Assembly (NCBI GenBank): GCA_000004985.1 | Contig: GG738883.1 | Source: Naegleria gruberi | Taxonomy: Eukaryota | Strand: one strand, 5' to 3' | Length of the DNA stretch: 64,000 bases | Notes under the pieces: generated by a model | Told to the model about the DNA's origin: nothing | The model's input: the letters and a program-made list of their open reading frames with translations, nothing else | The model's database searches: none | Shown: one piece after another, positions 379 to 32,632 of the stretch | Layout of the letters: every line of letters starts with the position of its first letter | How positions within the stretch are numbered: position 1 is the first letter of the stretch | Made by a program: the position numbers and the translations under genes

Positions 379-1314
379 TTATTTGCTTGGTATGCGCACT
401 ATACGACCTTCAGCAATATTGACTTGTGTAGGAGTTTGTGTATTATAAAAACCATCCAGTAATTTTATCATTGTGGTGGTACTTGTTTGATTACTCTCAA
501 AAGATGCCTTATTCTTCATAGCAGCTTCGTAAATCATATCAGCCTTTTCTGTATCACTGTCTGTAGTTTCATAGTAAATAATAGATTCATGTGAAATCTT
601 ATTAACATTCTTTTTAAGGTCATTATCGACAACAGAACGTAGCTCCGTCACCACTTTCTTTTCAGCATCCCCATGTGGTTCCTTAACCAAACCGTTTTCC
701 CTTATTTTCGAAAAAATTTTTGTACCTGTCGCTGCTGCAAGAGTCGTACCAGAAACTGCCAGAACAAATTCAGAAGCACCTGTTACAGCTACACCAAACA
801 ATTGACCCCCTGGAACGACAAAAAGCAAACCACCTACAACAAAACCAGTTGCAGCAATAATTGCCATCCATTTTGCAACATGATTGGCGTTTGCTACTGT
901 TTTCTTCGCTTCATTGTACGCTTTAATATGTTCTGCTTGGGAATCGCCAACATCGCTTAGGAAATCATCACAGTTTGTAATAAATGTTTGCATATCTCTG
1001 GAAATATCACCCAAACTGGTCAGTATTTGTCCATTACATTCGTTATTCATCTTCACTACAATTTTATATCTATTCTTATTGTAATGATCGATAATTGAAG
1101 TACAGAAACGCGTCCCAGTATCTGACAATTCTGCAGTGCATCGTGTGATAGTATAGGCAGATTTAAGAATAATAGCTAGCTTTTCTTTTTGCTCTTTGCT
1201 GAGTTTTGAGTACTTTTGCAAGCTATCAATGGCTGTGTTCATATCACCAATATTTTTAGCTGCTGTTTTAATAACAAAATCAAACGCTACACTGTACAAT
1301 TTATCCTTGTCCAT
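379..1314 (-). CDS. Hypothetical 311-aa helical protein with a central ~48-aa Gly/Ala-rich hydrophobic hairpin (alpha-helical pore-forming-toxin-like / membrane-insertion architecture)
   Basis: ATG confirmed at 1314-1312 (cat on plus). Long uninterrupted ORF. Amphipathic charged helices flank WMAIIAATGFVVGGLLFVVPGGQLFGVAVTGASEFVLAVSGTTLAAATGT. No signal peptide. Product call is inference from composition only. Confidence 0.55.
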   Translation of the reverse strand: MDKDKLYSVAFDFVIKTAAKNIGDMNTAIDSLQKYSKLSKEQKEKLAIILKSAYTITRCTAELSDTGTRFCTSIIDHYNKNRYKIVVKMNNECNGQILTSLGDISRDMQTFITNCDDFLSDVGDSQAEHIKAYNEAKKTVANANHVAKWMAIIAATGFVVGGLLFVVPGGQLFGVAVTGASEFVLAVSGTTLAAATGTKIFSKIRENGLVKEPHGDAEKKVVTELRSVVDNDLKKNVNKISHESIIYYETTDSDTEKADMIYEAAMKNKASFESNQTSTTTMIKLLDGFYNTQTPTQVNIAEGRIVRIPSK

Positions 1315-2050: not shown

Positions 2051-4980
2051 CCCACGACTAAAGTCAGACCCAACATTTTGACTTTTATTCATCTTAATTC
2101 ATTATCTCAACAAATACTCATTATAAATCAATATATTATATATCAATATACTCCAAATTGAATATATAATCATATAATAACATAATATTACATCATTATT
2201 ATGACTTATATAAGTTAATTTCATATAATAGATTAGACAATTAGAATATCAATGAAAACATTTCAAAATCATTTCAAATCAATATATCACCTTATAAATC
2301 ATGTTGATAACAATATATATCAATTTCACATACTTTGTTATCATATCAGGGAATTAACTATTCAACTTGTCAACTGACCTATACTAACATTGAAGATAGA
2401 AATCTGTACCACTACAATTCACTTCCAATACATCTATACATGATAATTAAATATATCTATATGATTCAGAAGATCATCCATATCATACATGGTACATGGC
2501 TTATCCACTTGATACCTACAGGGATGTGACAATGACATCTACTATACAGATCATCATATAATTGATACAGTACCTTGCTAATGATGAATAAACACCACTG
2601 TATCAGTCTCATGACAATTTGAACTCATTCAACATGTCAGGAGTGTAATCATGAGAATTATGAATATCAAGAAAATGAAATCATATTAATTTTAAAATCT
2701 TTCAATTATAATATCATATATAGATCAATTTAACATGGTATATCAATAATTGGTATTGAATTTCATATCANNNNNNNNNNNNNNNNNNNNNNNNNNNNNN
2801 NNNNNNNNNNNNNNNNNNNNNNNNNNNNNNNNNNNNNNNNNNNNNNNNNNNNNNNNNNNNNNNNNNNNNNNNNNNNNNNNNNNNNNNNNNNNNNNNNNNN
2901 NNNNNNNNNNNNNNNNNNNNNNNNNNNNNNNNNNNNNNNNNNNNNNNNNNNNNNNNNNNNNNNNNNNNNNNNNNNNNNNNNNNNNNNNNNNNNNNNNNNN
3001 NNNNNNNNNNNNNNNNNNNNNNNNNNNNNNNNNNNNNNNNNNNNNNNNNNNNNNNNNNNNNNNNNNNNNNNNNNNNNNNNNNNNNNNNNNNNNNNNNNNN
3101 NNNNNNNNNNNNNNNNNNNNNNNNNNNNNNNNNNNNNNNNNNNNNNNNNNNNNNNNNNNNNNNNNNNNNNNNNNNNNNNNNNNNNNNNNNNNNNNNNNNN
3201 NNNNNNNNNNNNNNNNNNNNNNNNNNNNNNNNNNNNNNNNNNNNNNNNNNNNNNNNNNNNNNNNNNNNNNNNNNNNNNNNNNNNNNNNNNNNNNNNNNNN
3301 NNNNNNNNNNNNNNNNNNNNNNNNNNNNNNNNNNNNNNNNNNNNNNNNNNNNNNNNNNNNNNNNNNNNNNNNNNNNNNNNNNNNNNNNNNNNNNNNNNNN
3401 NNNNNNNNNNNNNNNNNNNNNNNNNNNNNNNNNNNNNNNNNNNNNNNNNNNNNNNNNNNNNNNNNNNNNNNNNNNNNNNNNNNNNNNNNNNNNNNNNNNN
3501 NNNNNNNNNNNNNNNNNNNNNNNNNNNNNNNNNNNNNNNNNNNNNNNNNNNNNNNNNNNNNNNNNNNNNNNNNNNNNNNNNNNNNNNNNNNNNNNNNNNN
3601 NNNNNNNNNNNNNNNNNNNNNNNNNNNNNNNNNNNNNNNNNNNNNNNNNNNNNNNNNNNNNNNNNNNNNNNNNNNNNNNNNNNNNNNNNNNNNNNNNNNN
3701 NNNNNNNNNNNNNNNNNNNNNNNNNNNNNNNNNNNNNNNNNNNNNNNNNNNNNNNNNNNNNNNNNNNNNNNNNNNNNNNNNNNNNNNNNNNNNNNNNNNN
3801 NNNNNNNNNNNNNNNNNNNNNNNNNNNNNNNNNNNNNNNNNNNNNNNNNNNNNNNNNNNNNNNNNNNNNNNNNNNNNNNNNNNNNNNNNNNNNNNNNNNN
3901 NNNNNNNNNNNNNNNNNNNNNNNNNNNNNNNNNNNNNNNNNNNNNNNNNNNNNNNNNNNNNNNNNNNNNNNNNNNNNNNNNNNNNNNNNNNNNNNNNNNN
4001 NNNNNTATATATATGATAAATTCAATTATTTCAATTATATATCATAAATCATGATAATTAGACATGTATCAATCAGTGGAATTAAGTCATGTAAGATATT
4101 CATCCTTCAATAACCAATATTGTCATTTTCACACAAGTTGACTTCCTACAGTCTGAATATGGATCCAATAATGATTATTTCAATTATATATGATTATATT
4201 TGACATTTACTACAATATCTATGAGTTAATATAAATGGGAGAGTATTTCCATAGTATGGCTCAATATCTTGGTCAATTAAGGTAGAACGAGTACAGTATA
4301 CTAAGGATATCATATGTTATACTTCCAACAATTCTACAAGGTAGATATCATCATAATACATCATATATATGAGATTGGTGATGATTCTAATAACATTCAT
4401 ATAATAGTACAATAAATGTTGAAAAGTTAATTTTTAGACATGTTGTAGTTTATTTAATATACCGATTCAACAAGATTAATTCATAATATCGTCTATTCAT
4501 ATATATATCTACAATATATCAAAAGTTTCATTCTGGCCCAACTTTGAAATTTTCAACTTTGTCAGACCCAAGGTAGGTTCAACCCATGGGGTCACTTTAG
4601 GACTCAATTATCTCGGGAACGGCGAATTAAAAAAATTAGTATTTTCTATCATTTCTTCCAAAACTCATATAGATTGATATTTGAGTGAATCATAACCCGG
4701 AACGTTCTCGTCGCAGAGATAATAGATATACTAGGAATTTTTGAGTTGACCATTTTTGATTATCTCAATAACTACGGGGAGTTTTTTCACGTGTATTACA
4801 GAATAGATATATTAATGTATTTAATAATACATATATAAGAACTGGATAGCCAATATTAGCCGTTCGTTTTATGTGATTAGGTTTTCGCCATACCCAAACC
4901 CAAACCCAACCATTAATCATTTAGCTGAATTGGGTCTTGCGTAGGTTTATTTTTTCTTAATATATATATATATTTGTAGA

Positions 4981-25164: not shown

Positions 25165-28023
25165 TTATTGAACAACAAAAGTCATCTTTTGAACATTACC
25201 AGTTGCAGAACTCTTCATCTTTTCAATAACTTCTTCCTTAATCTTTTCTCTTTCCAATACTTGATAAGAAATGATACCAAAGAATTTACCTAAAGTATTT
25301 CCGTTACCAGTCAAGATACCCTTATGCATGGCCTTGATGTTATCACCAGCATAGGTGGCGACAATATATTTGAAGAGAGTAATTCCTCCACTTTCCTTAC
25401 ATCTTACTCTGAAAATAATGTGGAACATGCTGTCATCAGTCAACTCTGGCATGAATTCCTTGAAACGAAGTCCCTTCTTGTAGAAGAGCATCTTGTTATT
25501 AATCTTTCCATCCTTATAATAGAGAACAATGTAGCTGGACTTCTTTTGACTGTGATTATGGAGCTTTTCATATTCTGAGAGGTCTGTATCACCATCATCA
25601 ACATCCATATCCAAATTATCCATTGAATCATCAAATCCAAGTAATTCTTCACCTCTCAACATGTCAAATACTGAAAGGACATTGTAATCGACGTTAATTC
25701 CTTCAAATGATTGATAACGAGTACCAGATTCATCTTCTGTTGCAGTTGACTTGGAAAGGAGATCTTGCATGACCTTACTCATTTGAGAAAGTTCTGCATT
25801 TTTCTTTTCCTCTTCCTCTTTAGCTCTTCTACGTTCTTCCTCTTCCAATTCTGCCTTTCTTCTACGTTCTTCTTCCTCAATTTGGGCTTTTCTCTTTCTT
25901 TCGTCTTCTTCGAGTTGAGCTTTTCTTTTACGTTCGTCTTCTTCTAATTGTGCCTTTCTCTTTCTTTCATCTTCCTCTAATTGGGCTTTTCTCAAACGAT
26001 CTTCTTCTTCCTTCTTCTTCCTGTCTTCTTCATCCTTCTTACGTCTGGCTTCCTCTTCTTGTCTTTTCTTTTCTTCTTGTTCTCTCCTCATCTTTTCTTC
26101 CAATTCTCTACGTTTACGTTCTTCTTCTTCCTTCTTGGCCAATTCAAGTTGAGAATTGTTGAGAGAGTTAATGAGATTTTGAATTTGATCTTCTAAATGT
26201 TTGACCTTTTCCTTGAGTTCATTAACTTGCTTTTCATTTTGATCTTTGGCAAGTGACAAATCAGTGAGGTTCTTCTTTTCCAATTCAGAAAACTTTTCAG
26301 TAATTTGCTTTTTCAATTCTTGATGAGAATATCTCAACTTGTCTTCAATAGTTGAGCAAACAGTACATTGAACCATTAATTCTTGATCTCCTGAATTGAC
26401 AACTGAATTATTGACATCCTTATTCTTTGGTTCAGTTGGAACAATCCAATAAGCAGAATCCTCAAAGGTCTTTTCAGGACTCATCACAAAAAGCCACTTG
26501 TTATAGACGAATCCATGCAAGAAACCACCAGCAATTGATGTCACAACTGTAATACAGAGAGCACAGATTTGGAATCCCCACAAATTAGTATACTTGGATC
26601 CAAACATTGTCTTGGTATCATCGCCATAGATTTTTACCTTTGCTGCATTGTCAATGGCATTACCTGTGGCTACAATGCTAACCAAACCACCATACACACC
26701 AATCAATAAATGGGTTGAGAATACATTGGAAGTGTCGTAAATTCTCAAATGTTTGATGAGTGGTTGTAAGACACACAAACCCAATCCAGTCAATGCACCA
26801 GCAACAAGACCAATGGTTAAGGCACCTCCTGGTGAAACAATGACTGATTGAACGGAGGCCATTGAGATACCACCAACGATGGCTCCTCTCTGTAAATCTC
26901 TCATTGAGAATCTTCCTCTCAGCAAACGCATAACCACGAAATGGATAACACAACTTGCAGCCATAGCAATGAATGTGGTCATTTGAGCTCTGTATTGATA
27001 TTGAGCATTGGAAATCAAAGCAGCATTGAAAGATGGCATCAACACCCACAATAAAACAGTTCCAATAATTGCAATCATGTCAGATGCCTTACTATGATGA
27101 TTTTCAAATACCTTACTTTGGAAAACCGATGGTTTGTACAATGACCAAGAAGCTGCCAATCCATAACAAGCACCAAATACATGAATAAACATGGAACCAC
27201 CATAATCAATAGCTCCCAATACCAAAATAATACAGAAATAATTCACACTATAAATGAAAACCTCTGAAAATGCCATTAAAATCAATTGAACTGGACTTGT
27301 TTTTCCAATCACACAACTTGTACTAATCAAAACAGCAAAAGCTCCATAAAAACCATGAACCAACCACTTCATATCCAAATAAATAACCGTATTAAATACA
27401 GTTTCATTCTTGGCATCTTTCAAAGTTGCATATTCCATAATCTTTGACCAAAATCCTTGAGCAATTATTGAGAATTGAAAACTCAAAGCTGCCAATAAAA
27501 TTGTCATTCCAATCGTGTGATATTGAGCATTCTTAATGCAACTCATTGAAAGTCCTAATCCTAATAATGTCATCATGGCAACATCAATCAAATTCTTGTA
27601 ATCACCAATTTGTGAGCTAGTGGAAGATGTTGGAAATTCAAAGAAAATCCAAAACATGCTCACATAGAATAATTCGAATAGAACAAGATAGAAAACGAAT
27701 GAAAATTTTTCAATATCGTATTCTCTACTAGCTATCCATTCGGTAACTTTTTCCTTCACGGTCTTTTCTTCTTGTGGTTTCTTCTCCAAATCAAAATTAA
27801 AATTACTACTCGATTCTAATTGAATAGTCGATTCTCCTCCACCTTCTTTCTTCTTCATAGACGCTGTCAACCCTTTAATTTTCTTCACACCATAATAAAT
27901 AAAACATCCGATCAAGTAAATAAAGTAAACGATTAGAAAAACGCTGGAAATTACAATTCCAGAAATGTAACGGTTCTTGTTGGTGGCAAGAGTCTCGGCG
28001 ATTGTGCTGTTGGTAGAGTTCAT
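25165..28023 (-). CDS. Rh50-type (Rhesus/Amt superfamily) ammonium transporter fused to a long E/K/R-rich helical segment and a C-terminal globular domain (952 aa)
   Basis: ATG verified. 11-12 TM. Rh-family signature DYGGSMFIHVFGACYGLAASW. Residues ~600-720 are KEEEERKRRELEEKMRREQEEKKRQEEEARRKKDEEDRKKKEEEDRLRKAQLEEDERKRKAQLEEDERKRKAQLEEDERKRKAQIEEEERRRKAELEEEERRR (encoded by 33-bp tandem repeats around 25800-26000), then a ~200-aa tail. Confidence 0.85.
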   Translation of the reverse strand: MNSTNSTIAETLATNKNRYISGIVISSVFLIVYFIYLIGCFIYYGVKKIKGLTASMKKKEGGGESTIQLESSSNFNFDLEKKPQEEKTVKEKVTEWIASREYDIEKFSFVFYLVLFELFYVSMFWIFFEFPTSSTSSQIGDYKNLIDVAMMTLLGLGLSMSCIKNAQYHTIGMTILLAALSFQFSIIAQGFWSKIMEYATLKDAKNETVFNTVIYLDMKWLVHGFYGAFAVLISTSCVIGKTSPVQLILMAFSEVFIYSVNYFCIILVLGAIDYGGSMFIHVFGACYGLAASWSLYKPSVFQSKVFENHHSKASDMIAIIGTVLLWVLMPSFNAALISNAQYQYRAQMTTFIAMAASCVIHFVVMRLLRGRFSMRDLQRGAIVGGISMASVQSVIVSPGGALTIGLVAGALTGLGLCVLQPLIKHLRIYDTSNVFSTHLLIGVYGGLVSIVATGNAIDNAAKVKIYGDDTKTMFGSKYTNLWGFQICALCITVVTSIAGGFLHGFVYNKWLFVMSPEKTFEDSAYWIVPTEPKNKDVNNSVVNSGDQELMVQCTVCSTIEDKLRYSHQELKKQITEKFSELEKKNLTDLSLAKDQNEKQVNELKEKVKHLEDQIQNLINSLNNSQLELAKKEEEERKRRELEEKMRREQEEKKRQEEEARRKKDEEDRKKKEEEDRLRKAQLEEDERKRKAQLEEDERKRKAQLEEDERKRKAQIEEEERRRKAELEEEERRRAKEEEEKKNAELSQMSKVMQDLLSKSTATEDESGTRYQSFEGINVDYNVLSVFDMLRGEELLGFDDSMDNLDMDVDDGDTDLSEYEKLHNHSQKKSSYIVLYYKDGKINNKMLFYKKGLRFKEFMPELTDDSMFHIIFRVRCKESGGITLFKYIVATYAGDNIKAMHKGILTGNGNTLGKFFGIISYQVLEREKIKEEVIEKMKSSATGNVQKMTFVVQ

Positions 28024-30071: not shown

Positions 30072-31056
30072 CTAAATCTTAATTACTGAACTGGTCATTC
30101 TTCTCGATAACACCTGCATAGCAACCTCAGAAGCTGGATCAATACTTTCCTCAGATTTTGGAATTTCCGATATTCCCAATTGAAGTTGTTTCTCCACAAG
30201 TTTCTTATAAACTCCTCCTTCTCTATTCATCAATTCATTATGAGAACCTGCCTCTGTAACCTCTCCATCAACCATTACAACAATCTTATCACAATTTCTA
30301 ATGGTGGACAAACGATGAGCAACACAGATTGTGGTCCTTCCTTTCATGAGTGTATCCAATGCTGATTGGACTAAACCTTCCGATTCTGTATCGAGGGCAC
30401 TGGTTGCTTCATCTAATAGTAATACTAATGGATTTTGTAAAACAGCACGTGCAATGGCAATTCTTTGCTTTTGTCCACCACTTAGTGAAATACCCTTTTC
30501 TCCTAATTTGGTATTATAGCCATCTGGTAGTTCCATAATGAAATGATGACAGTTGGCAGTTCTAGCAGCTCTTTCAATATCTTCCAAAGTGACATTTTCA
30601 ATACCAACAGCATAGGCAATATTTTCCTTAATGGAACAACTAAAAAGCACTGGTTCCTGAGTTACAATTCCCAAGGCATGCTTATGAAGCCAAATAGGAT
30701 CAATTTCCTTAACATCTACACCATCCAATAATATATTTCCTCCTTTAGTTTCGTAAAATCTTTCTAATAATGAAACGATTGTTGTTTTACCAGAACCTGA
30801 TGGACCAACGAGTGCAACTGAAGTTCCTGCTTTGATATCGAGTGAGAACTTTTCTAAAACTCGAACATCACTTCTGGATGGATAGACGAAAGAAATATTT
30901 TCAAATTTGATTGATCCTTTTAAGGAAGGAATTGTTTTTCCTCCCTTAAATGGAATTTCTGGAGTTCTCTTCATGACACGAAGTAAATTTTTCATGGAAA
31001 CGAAAGCTCCAATGATATTTGGGAGAACTATTCCTGCCTCAGTCATGCCAAAGACA
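30072..31056 (-). CDS. ABCB-type half transporter, C-terminal exon (nucleotide-binding domain)
   Basis: Walker A GPSGSGKTT, signature LSGGQKQRIAIARAV, Walker B LLLDEATSALD, H-loop AHRLST. Acceptor ttttcaaag precedes VFGMTEAGIV... on the minus strand. Confidence 0.85.
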
Positions 31057-31557
31057 CTTTGAAAAGATTACAAAAATTTAAAGTTTCGAATAATGAAAAC
31101 TTACGAATAAACAATGGTACCAAATGTTTTCATTAATTCACCAACTGTTAATTTGCCATCTGCAACCATATGTCCTCTAAAATTATAAGAAAATACAAGA
31201 GTTTAAGTTACTTTCCATTTTTGAAAAATATTAGAAACTTACCCATACTAGGAAAATGTCAACAAAATTAAAAAATCAATATTTGAAATACTTACCCACC
31301 ATGCAAGAGCATTTGTTCCCCACATGACTGCTGAGAAAGATCCCCAAGCAGCTCCATCAAAACACGATCTGATAAATCCAAAAAATTGTGTCCTCTTGAA
31401 ATTACCAGCAAATCTTTCTTGTTCCTTTTCTATTTGGTTTCAAAATTCATAATCAATCGAAACACATGTGAATAGTTATAAAACATGACATGTGGCAGTG
31501 AAATTTCATATTAATTGAACTAGTCAACTGAAATTTTTCAAAATACTCAAAACATAC

Positions 31558-32632
31558 CTTCACAACCCATGCTTCTCACAGTTCTAATACTTGAAATTAC
31601 TTCACTGGCAATGATTGAACTCTGTTCATTGACAGTATTTGCCTTTCCATCAAAAATCTGAACAAACTTTGCTAAAATTCCATAACCAACAATCATGAGC
31701 GGACTTGTGGAAATCATAATCAAGGTCAATTCCCAAGTTGTGGCAAAAGCCAAAGCAACGCCAAGAATGAATTGAGTGACGTTTTGTACAAAGCTAGCCA
31801 GCTTGTAGGAGAGTGCATCCTGAATTTTGTAAATGTCTTCACTCAGTGGAAGTGTCAATTGACCTGTTTGTTTAATGTCAAAAAATCCAATTTCTTGTTT
31901 TGTGAGCGAATTAAAATAGGCTCTTCTTAGTGAGATTCCAATACGTTGTACAGCCCATCCCAAGAAGAAATAAGTCATCAAACTGGCGATACCTGAGCAA
32001 CCAGCAACAATTGCAAAATTGATGGCAACTCGATTAACATTCGTCTTGATTTCGTCTGAAGTAGGATAAACTCCATTCTTTGCCTGGAATACATTCAACA
32101 TATCTCCAAGAACGTATTGAAAAACCATTGGAATAACACCTCTACCAGCAGCTCCTATTAATCCAAAAAAGATTAGTATGAAATTCCAACCAATTATTCT
32201 AAAGATGGTGAAATACGAAAGTACGCCAAGTTTAGGTTCTCGAGTGTCGACTATTTTTCGTTCAGTTTCGATTATTTCCTTCTTATTTGGCTTGGTTTCG
32301 GTTGTTGTGGAGGAAGATGTTGCTGTTGCTGGAGTTTTCTTGAAAGGATTCAAGCTGAATCGTCTAGAATCGTTAGACGAAACACTTGTTGTAGGCGAAA
32401 GTTCAGCATCAGATGATTGTACACTGAGAGAAGAACTTTTACGACCTACAACTGGTAATTCATTAGAAAGCTCTGGATTATTCTTGAATAAATGTTGTTG
32501 GGCAGCATTAACATAATTAGGAGAAGTCGAAACTAAACTACTAGACGAATTTTGTTGTTGATAATCTACAGTTCCAAGATTGTTGGATTGAGTTGTTGCA
32601 TCAGAGTTTCCTCTATTTCTGAAGGAAGGCAT
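31558..32632 (-). CDS. ABCB-type half transporter, first exon (N-terminal S/T/N-rich tail plus transmembrane domain)
   Basis: ATG verified at 32632. Six-TM ABC exporter fold motifs. Donor gaag|gtatgt at 31557. At least one small internal exon (…ERFAGNFKRTQFFGFIRSCFDGAAWGSFSAVMWGTNALAWW…) lies in 31260-31430 between this exon and the NBD exon. Confidence 0.8.

Follow-up and report, generated by a model that had tools for sequence, protein, structure and literature searches.

What does an ammonium channel carry at the far end of a long, highly charged helix, and what might it use this for? The question is raised by a gene in a 64,000-nucleotide stretch of DNA from Naegleria gruberi (GenBank assembly GCA_000004985.1, contig GG738883.1), the whole of which we refer to as the window. 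The gene, NAEGRDRAFT_50811, has its coding sequence at 25165..28023 on the minus strand, where all the parts of the protein described below are also encoded, and specifies 952 residues plus a stop codon in a single exon. An initial annotation recognised an Rh-type ammonium channel, an ER/K helix and a folded C-terminal domain, and proposed that the helix holds a sensor or effector at a fixed distance from the channel. The three elements are indeed present, and they are conserved in three Naegleria species. By profile and predicted fold, however, the C-terminal domain is an ADF-H domain. Taking sequence and modelled structure together, we find it reasonably probable that this one gene encodes a channel and its cytoskeletal anchor in a single membrane protein, the channel probably attaching straight to the actin skeleton via its ADF-H tail.

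An ADF-H domain at the end of an Rh channel

The 952-residue open reading frame (ORF) is identical to a public protein of N. gruberi NEG-M (EFC41858.1, XP_002674602.1, UniProt D2VMN0; exact-sequence look-up), hence the published model is likewise one exon. The ORFs that flank it on both sides are also exact N. gruberi proteins. Two Pfam families score above their curated thresholds in the protein, PF00909 (Ammonium_transp) and PF00241 (Cofilin_ADF), and the same scan of the 952 residues detected no signalling domain, such as a kinase, a cyclase or a PAS domain. Where the initial annotation expected a sensor or effector there is an ADF-H domain instead. From the N- to the C-terminus the order is an extra transmembrane helix, an Rh core of 12 transmembrane helices, a coiled coil, the ER/K segment, a 44-residue motif, an acidic linker and the ADF-H domain. 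Databases have so far labelled the protein "predicted protein" or "ADF-H domain-containing protein", and none of the papers found by accession, locus tag or topic describes the architecture. A phylogeny of Rh50 lists N. gruberi as having RH50, with nothing further (PMC5209957), and in a paper on the Naegleria pangenome an ammonium transporter comes up just in passing (PMC9928731). Databases contain the architecture solely under an uncharacterised entry, and the fusion itself is new to the literature searched.

The ADF-H domain covers residues 816-952 (137 residues; 25168..25578) and is of the coactosin/Abp1/drebrin-like type. Its identity follows from the Pfam match, from profile comparisons with the PDB and from the predicted fold. 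PF00241 matches residues 816-935 with an E-value of 5e-8 and a score of 33.1 bits (cutoff 22.4), and the match takes in profile positions 3-124 of 125. For the profile comparison we used an alignment of 25 sequences, in which the tail is set beside the ADF-H domains from the proteins most closely related to it. Against PDB sequences this profile, which is dominated by relatives that carry multiple ADF-H domains, scored best with drebrin-like protein (4e-24), coactosin-like protein (3e-23), Entamoeba coactosin (3e-21) and drebrin (1e-18); actophorin and the cofilins were weaker, at 1e-9 to 1e-3. From the same alignment AlphaFold2 (AF2) predicted a complete ADF-H fold within residues 745-952 (mean pLDDT 76.5, pTM 0.71). 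A Foldseek comparison of this tail model with the PDB gave 50 top matches that were all ADF-H structures, headed by human coactosin-like protein (E 1e-7) and with drebrin also among the best, and the domains of GMF and twinfilin were likewise good structural matches. By profile and by modelled fold, the domain is a member of the coactosin/Abp1/drebrin branch, which was top-ranked each time.

The initial annotation described the tail as about 200 globular residues. A folded domain is certainly there, but the tail has three parts, of which the ADF-H domain is the last. The first is a motif of 44 residues (748-791; 25651..25782), MSKVMQDLLSKSTATEDESGTRYQSFEGINVDYNVLSVFDMLRG, delimited by its identity to orthologs and by AF2, which models residues ~750-791 as alpha-beta-beta-beta-alpha with a pLDDT of ~87-90. 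It has no Pfam match and lay outside the part covered by the fold searches. Between the two lies an acidic linker, residues 792-815 (25579..25650), with a conserved F..DD..DNL[DE] pattern and an AF2 pLDDT of 49-55.

At the other end of the protein, the channel core spans residues 107-530 (26434..27705), as delimited by Pfam and by alignment to RhCG and RhAG, and is of the Rh ammonium/gas channel type. PF00909 matches residues 135-512 (E 6.6e-37, 127.6 bits against a cutoff of 23.2). The closest solved relatives are human RhCG (3hd6, E 4e-51) and RhAG (7uzq_L, 1e-46), followed by bacterial Rh50 (1e-20), a ranking that places the core nearer to Rh than to Amt proteins. The Rh50 signature noted initially, DYGGSMFIHVFGACYGL, is located at residues 273-289 and the core does have 12 transmembrane helices, but hydropathy gives a total of 13, the additional one being N-terminal. 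The last Rh motif, FEDSAYWIVP, is found at residues 520-529.

In the alignment to 3hd6, where the chain numbering is offset by +5, D273, H281, F332 and H438 correspond to D177, H185, F235 and H344 of RhCG, so that the twin-His pair (H281/H438) and the Asp (D273) of the Rh pore are retained. Where RhCG has its first gate Phe (F130) the Naegleria protein has Y226, with F225 beside it; the residue is aromatic but not Phe. Residues D273, H281, F332, H438 and Y226 are invariant in an alignment of four Naegleria sequences. Since the pore residues align and do not vary, the pore looks competent, as judged from the alignment.

The N-terminal extension (residues 1-106; 27706..28023) consists of two N-X-S/T sequons at N2 and N5, the extra transmembrane helix at residues 23-41 (27901-27957, hydropathy peak 2.58) and a Lys-rich loop. 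The sequons (NAT and NIT) and the helix are kept in the orthologs from N. lovaniensis and N. fowleri. The predicted topology is N-out, with 13 transmembrane helices and the C-terminus inside, which would place the long tail in the cytoplasm. A metagenomic contig from an N. gruberi-like strain (L001, ENA ERZ929261) differs here: in its positions 1-710, upstream of the called start, the frame that matches the N-terminal 123 residues is broken by stops or frameshifts. An error of sequencing or assembly may be the cause, or the strains may genuinely differ.

The helical arm and conservation across Naegleria

The channel and the tail are joined by an arm that combines two kinds of helix. A juxtamembrane linker (residues 531-555), a helical segment (556-593) and a heptad coiled coil (594-628), assigned by heptad register, together take up 26140..26433, the coiled coil alone lying at 26140-26244. 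The a/d positions of the coiled coil read NVLVLILLSL, 8 of the 10 being hydrophobic, and its heptad score is 0.70-0.78. Matching heptad peaks are found at the equivalent site in N. lovaniensis and N. fowleri, despite a sequence identity of 16-18% in this region. A genuine heptad coiled coil therefore precedes the ER/K segment, and the arm is not solely a single alpha-helix (SAH).

The SAH-like ER/K part of the arm (residues 629-747; 25783..26139) was delimited by composition, ion pairs and a low heptad score. Measured over residues 622-750, 74% of positions are D, E, K or R (E 33%, K 18%, R 18%, D 5%), Leu makes up 7%, Pro and Gly do not occur, and there is no hydrophobic heptad seam. There are 70 opposite-charge pairs at i/i+4 spacing, including 41 of E with K or R, and the heptad score is at most 0.25, against 0.70-0.78 in the coiled coil upstream. 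Dense i/i+4 ion pairs and a dominance of E, K and R are the sequence hallmarks of SAHs (PMC4183817, PMC5378345). By these criteria the segment is SAH-like and a monomeric helix is putative; attachment to a trimer might favour association between chains. With a rise of 0.15 nm for each residue, a completely helical arm would measure about 25-30 nm (residues 556-747 about 29 nm), of which the ER/K portion would account for about 18 nm.

Part of the ER/K segment is encoded by a 33-bp tandem repeat of 5.6 copies (TRF; 25825..26010). The initial annotation was right about the repeats, and its count of four AQLEEDERKRK units is approximate: three units are exact (residues 680-712), and AQIEEEERRRK and AELEEEERRRA come next. 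Between any two of the three exact units, 6-7 of 33 nucleotides differ and every change is synonymous, which argues that the peptide is under purifying selection and that the array is no recent product of slippage. The metagenomic contig, which shares 96.9% DNA identity with the window over 4 kb, has one extra AQLEEDERKRK unit, with a DNA version unlike the others. Polymorphism in repeat number, which had been put forward as something to look for, is thus real. The array is absent from the N. fowleri gene. Altogether, the ER/K segment is 129 residues long in the window, 140 in the metagenomic strain, 111 in N. lovaniensis and 80 in N. fowleri, so a long charged helix is kept across species and strain while its exact length is not.

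This variation bears on the idea of a transceptor, in which ammonium transport or occupancy would be relayed to a domain, sensor or effector, kept a set distance away. A folded domain is held far from the pore, as such a device would have it. Some Amt/Mep proteins act as sensors, actin regulators are said to be pH-sensitive, and flux of NH3/NH4+ reportedly shifts local pH. A spacer of 80-140 residues does not, however, support a fixed distance, PF00909 and PF00241 are the sole families detected, with no signalling domain, and a long arm with flexible ends offers no obvious route for conformational coupling. We consider a transceptor improbable. Given the identity of the ADF-H domain and the missing signalling domain, a cytoskeletal anchor is the better description.

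Full-length orthologs with both Pfam domains are found in N. lovaniensis (963 residues) and N. fowleri (946 residues), the latter gene being likewise one continuous ORF. Between N. gruberi and these orthologs, identity is 53-55% in the Rh core, 53-54% in the ADF-H domain, 61-64% in the 44-residue motif, which is the best-conserved stretch of the protein, 41-55% in the ER/K segment and 16-18% in the coiled coil. With 53-64% against 53-55%, the tail is constrained as much as the channel. Between the window and the metagenomic strain there are no differences at all in the tail, and the overall dN/dS is 0.11.

An exhaustive HMMER search of 1.84 billion representative proteins with the tail profile returned 17 matches at E <=0.001. 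Three kinds of protein make up these matches: the Naegleria fusions; three stand-alone proteins with a coiled coil and a C-terminal ADF-H domain, among them NAEGRDRAFT_81960 and FDP41_005638; and multi-ADF-H proteins of other protists, e.g. Dermamoeba and Diplonema. This search found no further long Rh fusion. As the fusion was seen in Naegleria alone, the tail is not a common C-terminal extension of Rh proteins, a possibility that the initial annotation had held against its own proposal. Scans of metagenomes with tail patterns and Rh-core patterns added no relatives, the lone match (L002) being an Rh protein with 26% identity. In a word-index search the tail alone gave no match, even to the known orthologs, and the Rh core alone matched only vertebrate RhAG-like proteins, both outcomes being set by the limits of the tool.

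Could the fusion be an artefact of annotation or assembly, or could the locus, as the initial annotation had also allowed, make two products, from an Rh gene and a downstream coiled-coil-ADF-H gene? The existence of the stand-alone paralogs NAEGRDRAFT_81960 and FDP41_005638, the latter 7.3 kb from the fusion gene of N. fowleri, speaks for such a division. Nevertheless, the ORF is unbroken in four independent assemblies (NEG-M, the metagenomic strain, N. lovaniensis and N. fowleri), all indels are multiples of three, the ER/K repeat copies differ synonymously only, and the heptad pattern of the linker and the ER/K composition are kept across species. An artefact is very improbable, and we have rejected this explanation on the grounds of the unbroken ORFs, the in-frame indels and the synonymous repeat variation.

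Proposed actin attachment and its alternatives

Solved Rh and Amt proteins are trimers (e.g. 3hd6 and 7uzq). For the Naegleria protein we propose that the Rh core is presumably also a trimer, conducting NH3/NH4+ and possibly CO2, and that the cytoplasmic C-terminus of each subunit would extend one long helical arm from whichever membrane the channel resides in. The short coiled coil may bundle the three chains near this membrane, and the ER/K rods, if rigid, would then hold three ADF-H heads about 25-30 nm off. Heads of the coactosin/drebrin type would bind F-actin along its side, weakly and without severing. With three such low-affinity heads, a trimer would hold avidly to the actin cortex or to membranes coated with actin, and the channel would be tethered, positioned or immobilised relative to actin.

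The behaviour expected of the heads is modelled on coactosin and Abp1, which attach to F-actin at low affinity, do not bind G-actin and do not take filaments apart (PMC2447895). The residues involved are best defined for COTL1, where an R73E/K75E double mutant loses F-actin binding (PMC3890291). In the 25-sequence alignment the equivalent of K75 is K885, which is kept in at least 90% of the relatives and is the sole nearly invariant Lys.

Several observations weigh against an actin anchor. The equivalent of COTL1 R73 is Leu883, so that just one half of the basic pair associated with F-actin binding is present. The ADF-H domain is also divergent: when the tail is compared with solved ADF-H domains without the help of its relatives, the drebrin-like structure 1x67 is the sole match, at the weak E-values of 0.03-0.46. 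Furthermore, domains of this type can have partners other than actin. GMF, an ADF-H protein, binds Arp2/3, and the ADF-H domain of drebrin, one of the fold matches of the tail, binds ZMYND8 (5y1z). The full-length AF2 model, built on a four-sequence alignment, has a pLDDT of 39 and is unusable; in it the arm alone scored above 50, as low-confidence helix at residues 557-667 and 696-730. Finally, literature searches by accession and locus tag found no report of the localisation or expression of the gene.

Some of these points favour a different role for the domain, in which it serves protein interaction or regulation and leaves F-actin unbound. In that role it might recruit Arp2/3 as GMF does, with help from the acidic stretch beside it, bind some other partner, or fold back on the channel to gate it or regulate it. 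Besides the divergence of the domain and the Leu in place of R73, the good structural matches to GMF and twinfilin are in keeping with this, as are the conserved acidic linker and the unexplained 44-residue motif that adjoin the domain; acidic motifs of Abp1 and cortactin bind Arp2/3. Set against this, coactosin, drebrin and Abp1 rank well above GMF in both the profile and the fold comparisons, and the Lys equivalent to K75 is kept. A fold-back mechanism has the further difficulty of a helical arm of ~190 residues, which is geometrically awkward. On balance we regard a module that does not bind F-actin as unlikely, and attachment to actin remains our preferred explanation of the tail.

As to where such an anchor might act, we can offer a more specific and decidedly tentative proposal, which we rate as rather unlikely. 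The protein would serve two functions, as a channel and as a tether between membrane and cortex: a trivalent anchor on the Rh trimer would dock the contractile vacuole, the phagosome or food cup, or the plasma membrane to cortical actin and couple NH3/NH4+ (pH) flux to actin-rich zones, as an adaptor-free, protist-specific and independently evolved counterpart of the Rh-ankyrin-spectrin linkage of metazoans. The Rh50 protein of Dictyostelium (RhgA) is reportedly a contractile-vacuole protein of a free-living amoeba, and we know of no ER/K-ADF-H tail on it. In Naegleria, the cortex was observed to have actin filaments and the membranes of the contractile vacuole to have none; depolymerisation of actin nonetheless impaired osmoregulation (bioRxiv 10.1101/2023.03.01.529730).

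Related systems, genomic setting and wider meaning

A convenient comparison is with the Rh proteins of mammals. The C-termini of Rh and RhAG bind ankyrin-R in erythrocytes and that of RhBG binds ankyrin-G in the epithelium of the kidney, the latter an interaction needed for the membrane stability and transport activity of RhBG (PMC9467607). In both cases an Rh core has a cytoplasmic C-terminus that links, or in Naegleria would link, the channel to the cytoskeleton. However, the mammalian proteins do this through a short C-terminal tail that leads to separate ankyrin, then spectrin and then actin, whereas the Naegleria protein has ~420 extra fused residues and would be expected to bind F-actin directly, with no ankyrin or spectrin step. 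It also has the additional N-terminal transmembrane helix, which mammalian Rh proteins lack. Separately, we noted a protein of 682 residues (P0006, from Logan/JGI metagenome contigs of ~2.2 kb) whose Rh core is joined to N-terminal ankyrin repeats (PF12796, PF00023 and others). This gives a second, independent example of a scaffold-type domain attached to an Rh channel.

The tail, in turn, can be compared with drebrin, Abp1 and coactosin, whose ADF-H domains are of the same branch, with K75 of COTL1 retained as K885. Drebrin also pairs its ADF-H domain with an adjacent charged SAH (PMC12203971). These proteins are soluble and cytosolic, and in drebrin and Abp1 the ADF-H domain is N-terminal. 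In the Naegleria fusion the order is reversed, with the helix before the ADF-H domain, the whole is mounted on a channel of 13 transmembrane helices, and SH3 and proline-rich regions are absent. The arm resembles the ER/K SAHs of myosin VI and X, INCENP and the KER region of CAF-1 in being rich in E, K and R, ion-paired, free of a hydrophobic seam and placed between functional domains. It differs from them in the heptad coiled coil that precedes it, in a repeat of 11 residues that has a single Leu in each unit and in its variable length.

Closest of all to the ADF-H domain, among the 1.84 billion proteins searched, are the stand-alone Naegleria proteins NAEGRDRAFT_81960 and FDP41_005638 (E 8e-14 and 1e-9; hhalign probability 97.6). 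They resemble the tail in layout, a coiled coil at the N-terminus being followed by a linker and then by the ADF-H domain at the C-terminus, but are without the membrane domain, the ER/K segment and the 44-residue motif, and hhalign found no homology upstream of the ADF-H domain. FDP41_005638 (403 residues; L003 14233-15444, minus strand) is separated from the fusion gene of N. fowleri by 7.3 kb and three genes, and this proximity hints at the origin of the fusion. We considered whether the whole tail is homologous to these stand-alone proteins; hhalign supports this for the ADF-H part only. The capture of a whole gene is therefore a conjecture.

No stand-alone ADF-H paralog occurs elsewhere in the 64-kb N. 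gruberi window, and the genes near the fusion (a GST, an ABC transporter and an NHL repeat gene) are unrelated to it. Two adjacent ORFs at 30072-32632 (minus strand) match ABC_membrane (31547-32632) and ABC_tran (30072-31046), and are probably the two pieces of a single ABC transporter gene, divided by an intron or a change of frame.

Telomere-type (CCCAAA)n arrays are present at 1-300 and 1576-2055 of the window, which thus starts at a chromosome or scaffold end, with the fusion gene ~25 kb away. The window has N gaps at 320-369, 1376-1575 and 2771-4005. Between the two arrays lie gaps and an ORF of 311 residues (379-1314, minus strand) with no Pfam match, and this succession of array, gap, ORF and array looks like an assembly join. 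The end of the N. fowleri contig VFQX01000044.1 (L003 1-240) also carries CCCAAA repeats, and the ortholog (L003 4101-6941) is ~4 kb off. The fusion gene is oriented there opposite to that of N. gruberi relative to the telomere. With both genes close to CCCAAA ends, a subtelomeric position is common to N. gruberi and N. fowleri.

Rh proteins are best known in mammals within complexes anchored to the cytoskeleton, and the reason for anchoring a channel for NH3 or CO2 is debated. A lineage of distant protists, the Heterolobosea, appears to have independently joined a putative actin-binding module to an Rh channel and to have kept it across Naegleria, including the pathogen N. fowleri. An independent fusion that is kept throughout the genus suggests that the coupling of Rh proteins to the cytoskeleton is a recurrent need and not a peculiarity of vertebrates. 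The arm, a coiled coil and ER/K helix of naturally varying length on a transmembrane protein, is useful for the study of SAH spacers, and the fusion provides a simple and genetically self-contained system in which the effects of anchoring may be tested. If the trivalent anchor proposed above is correct, cytoskeletal anchoring would be a recurrent functional requirement of Rh channels.

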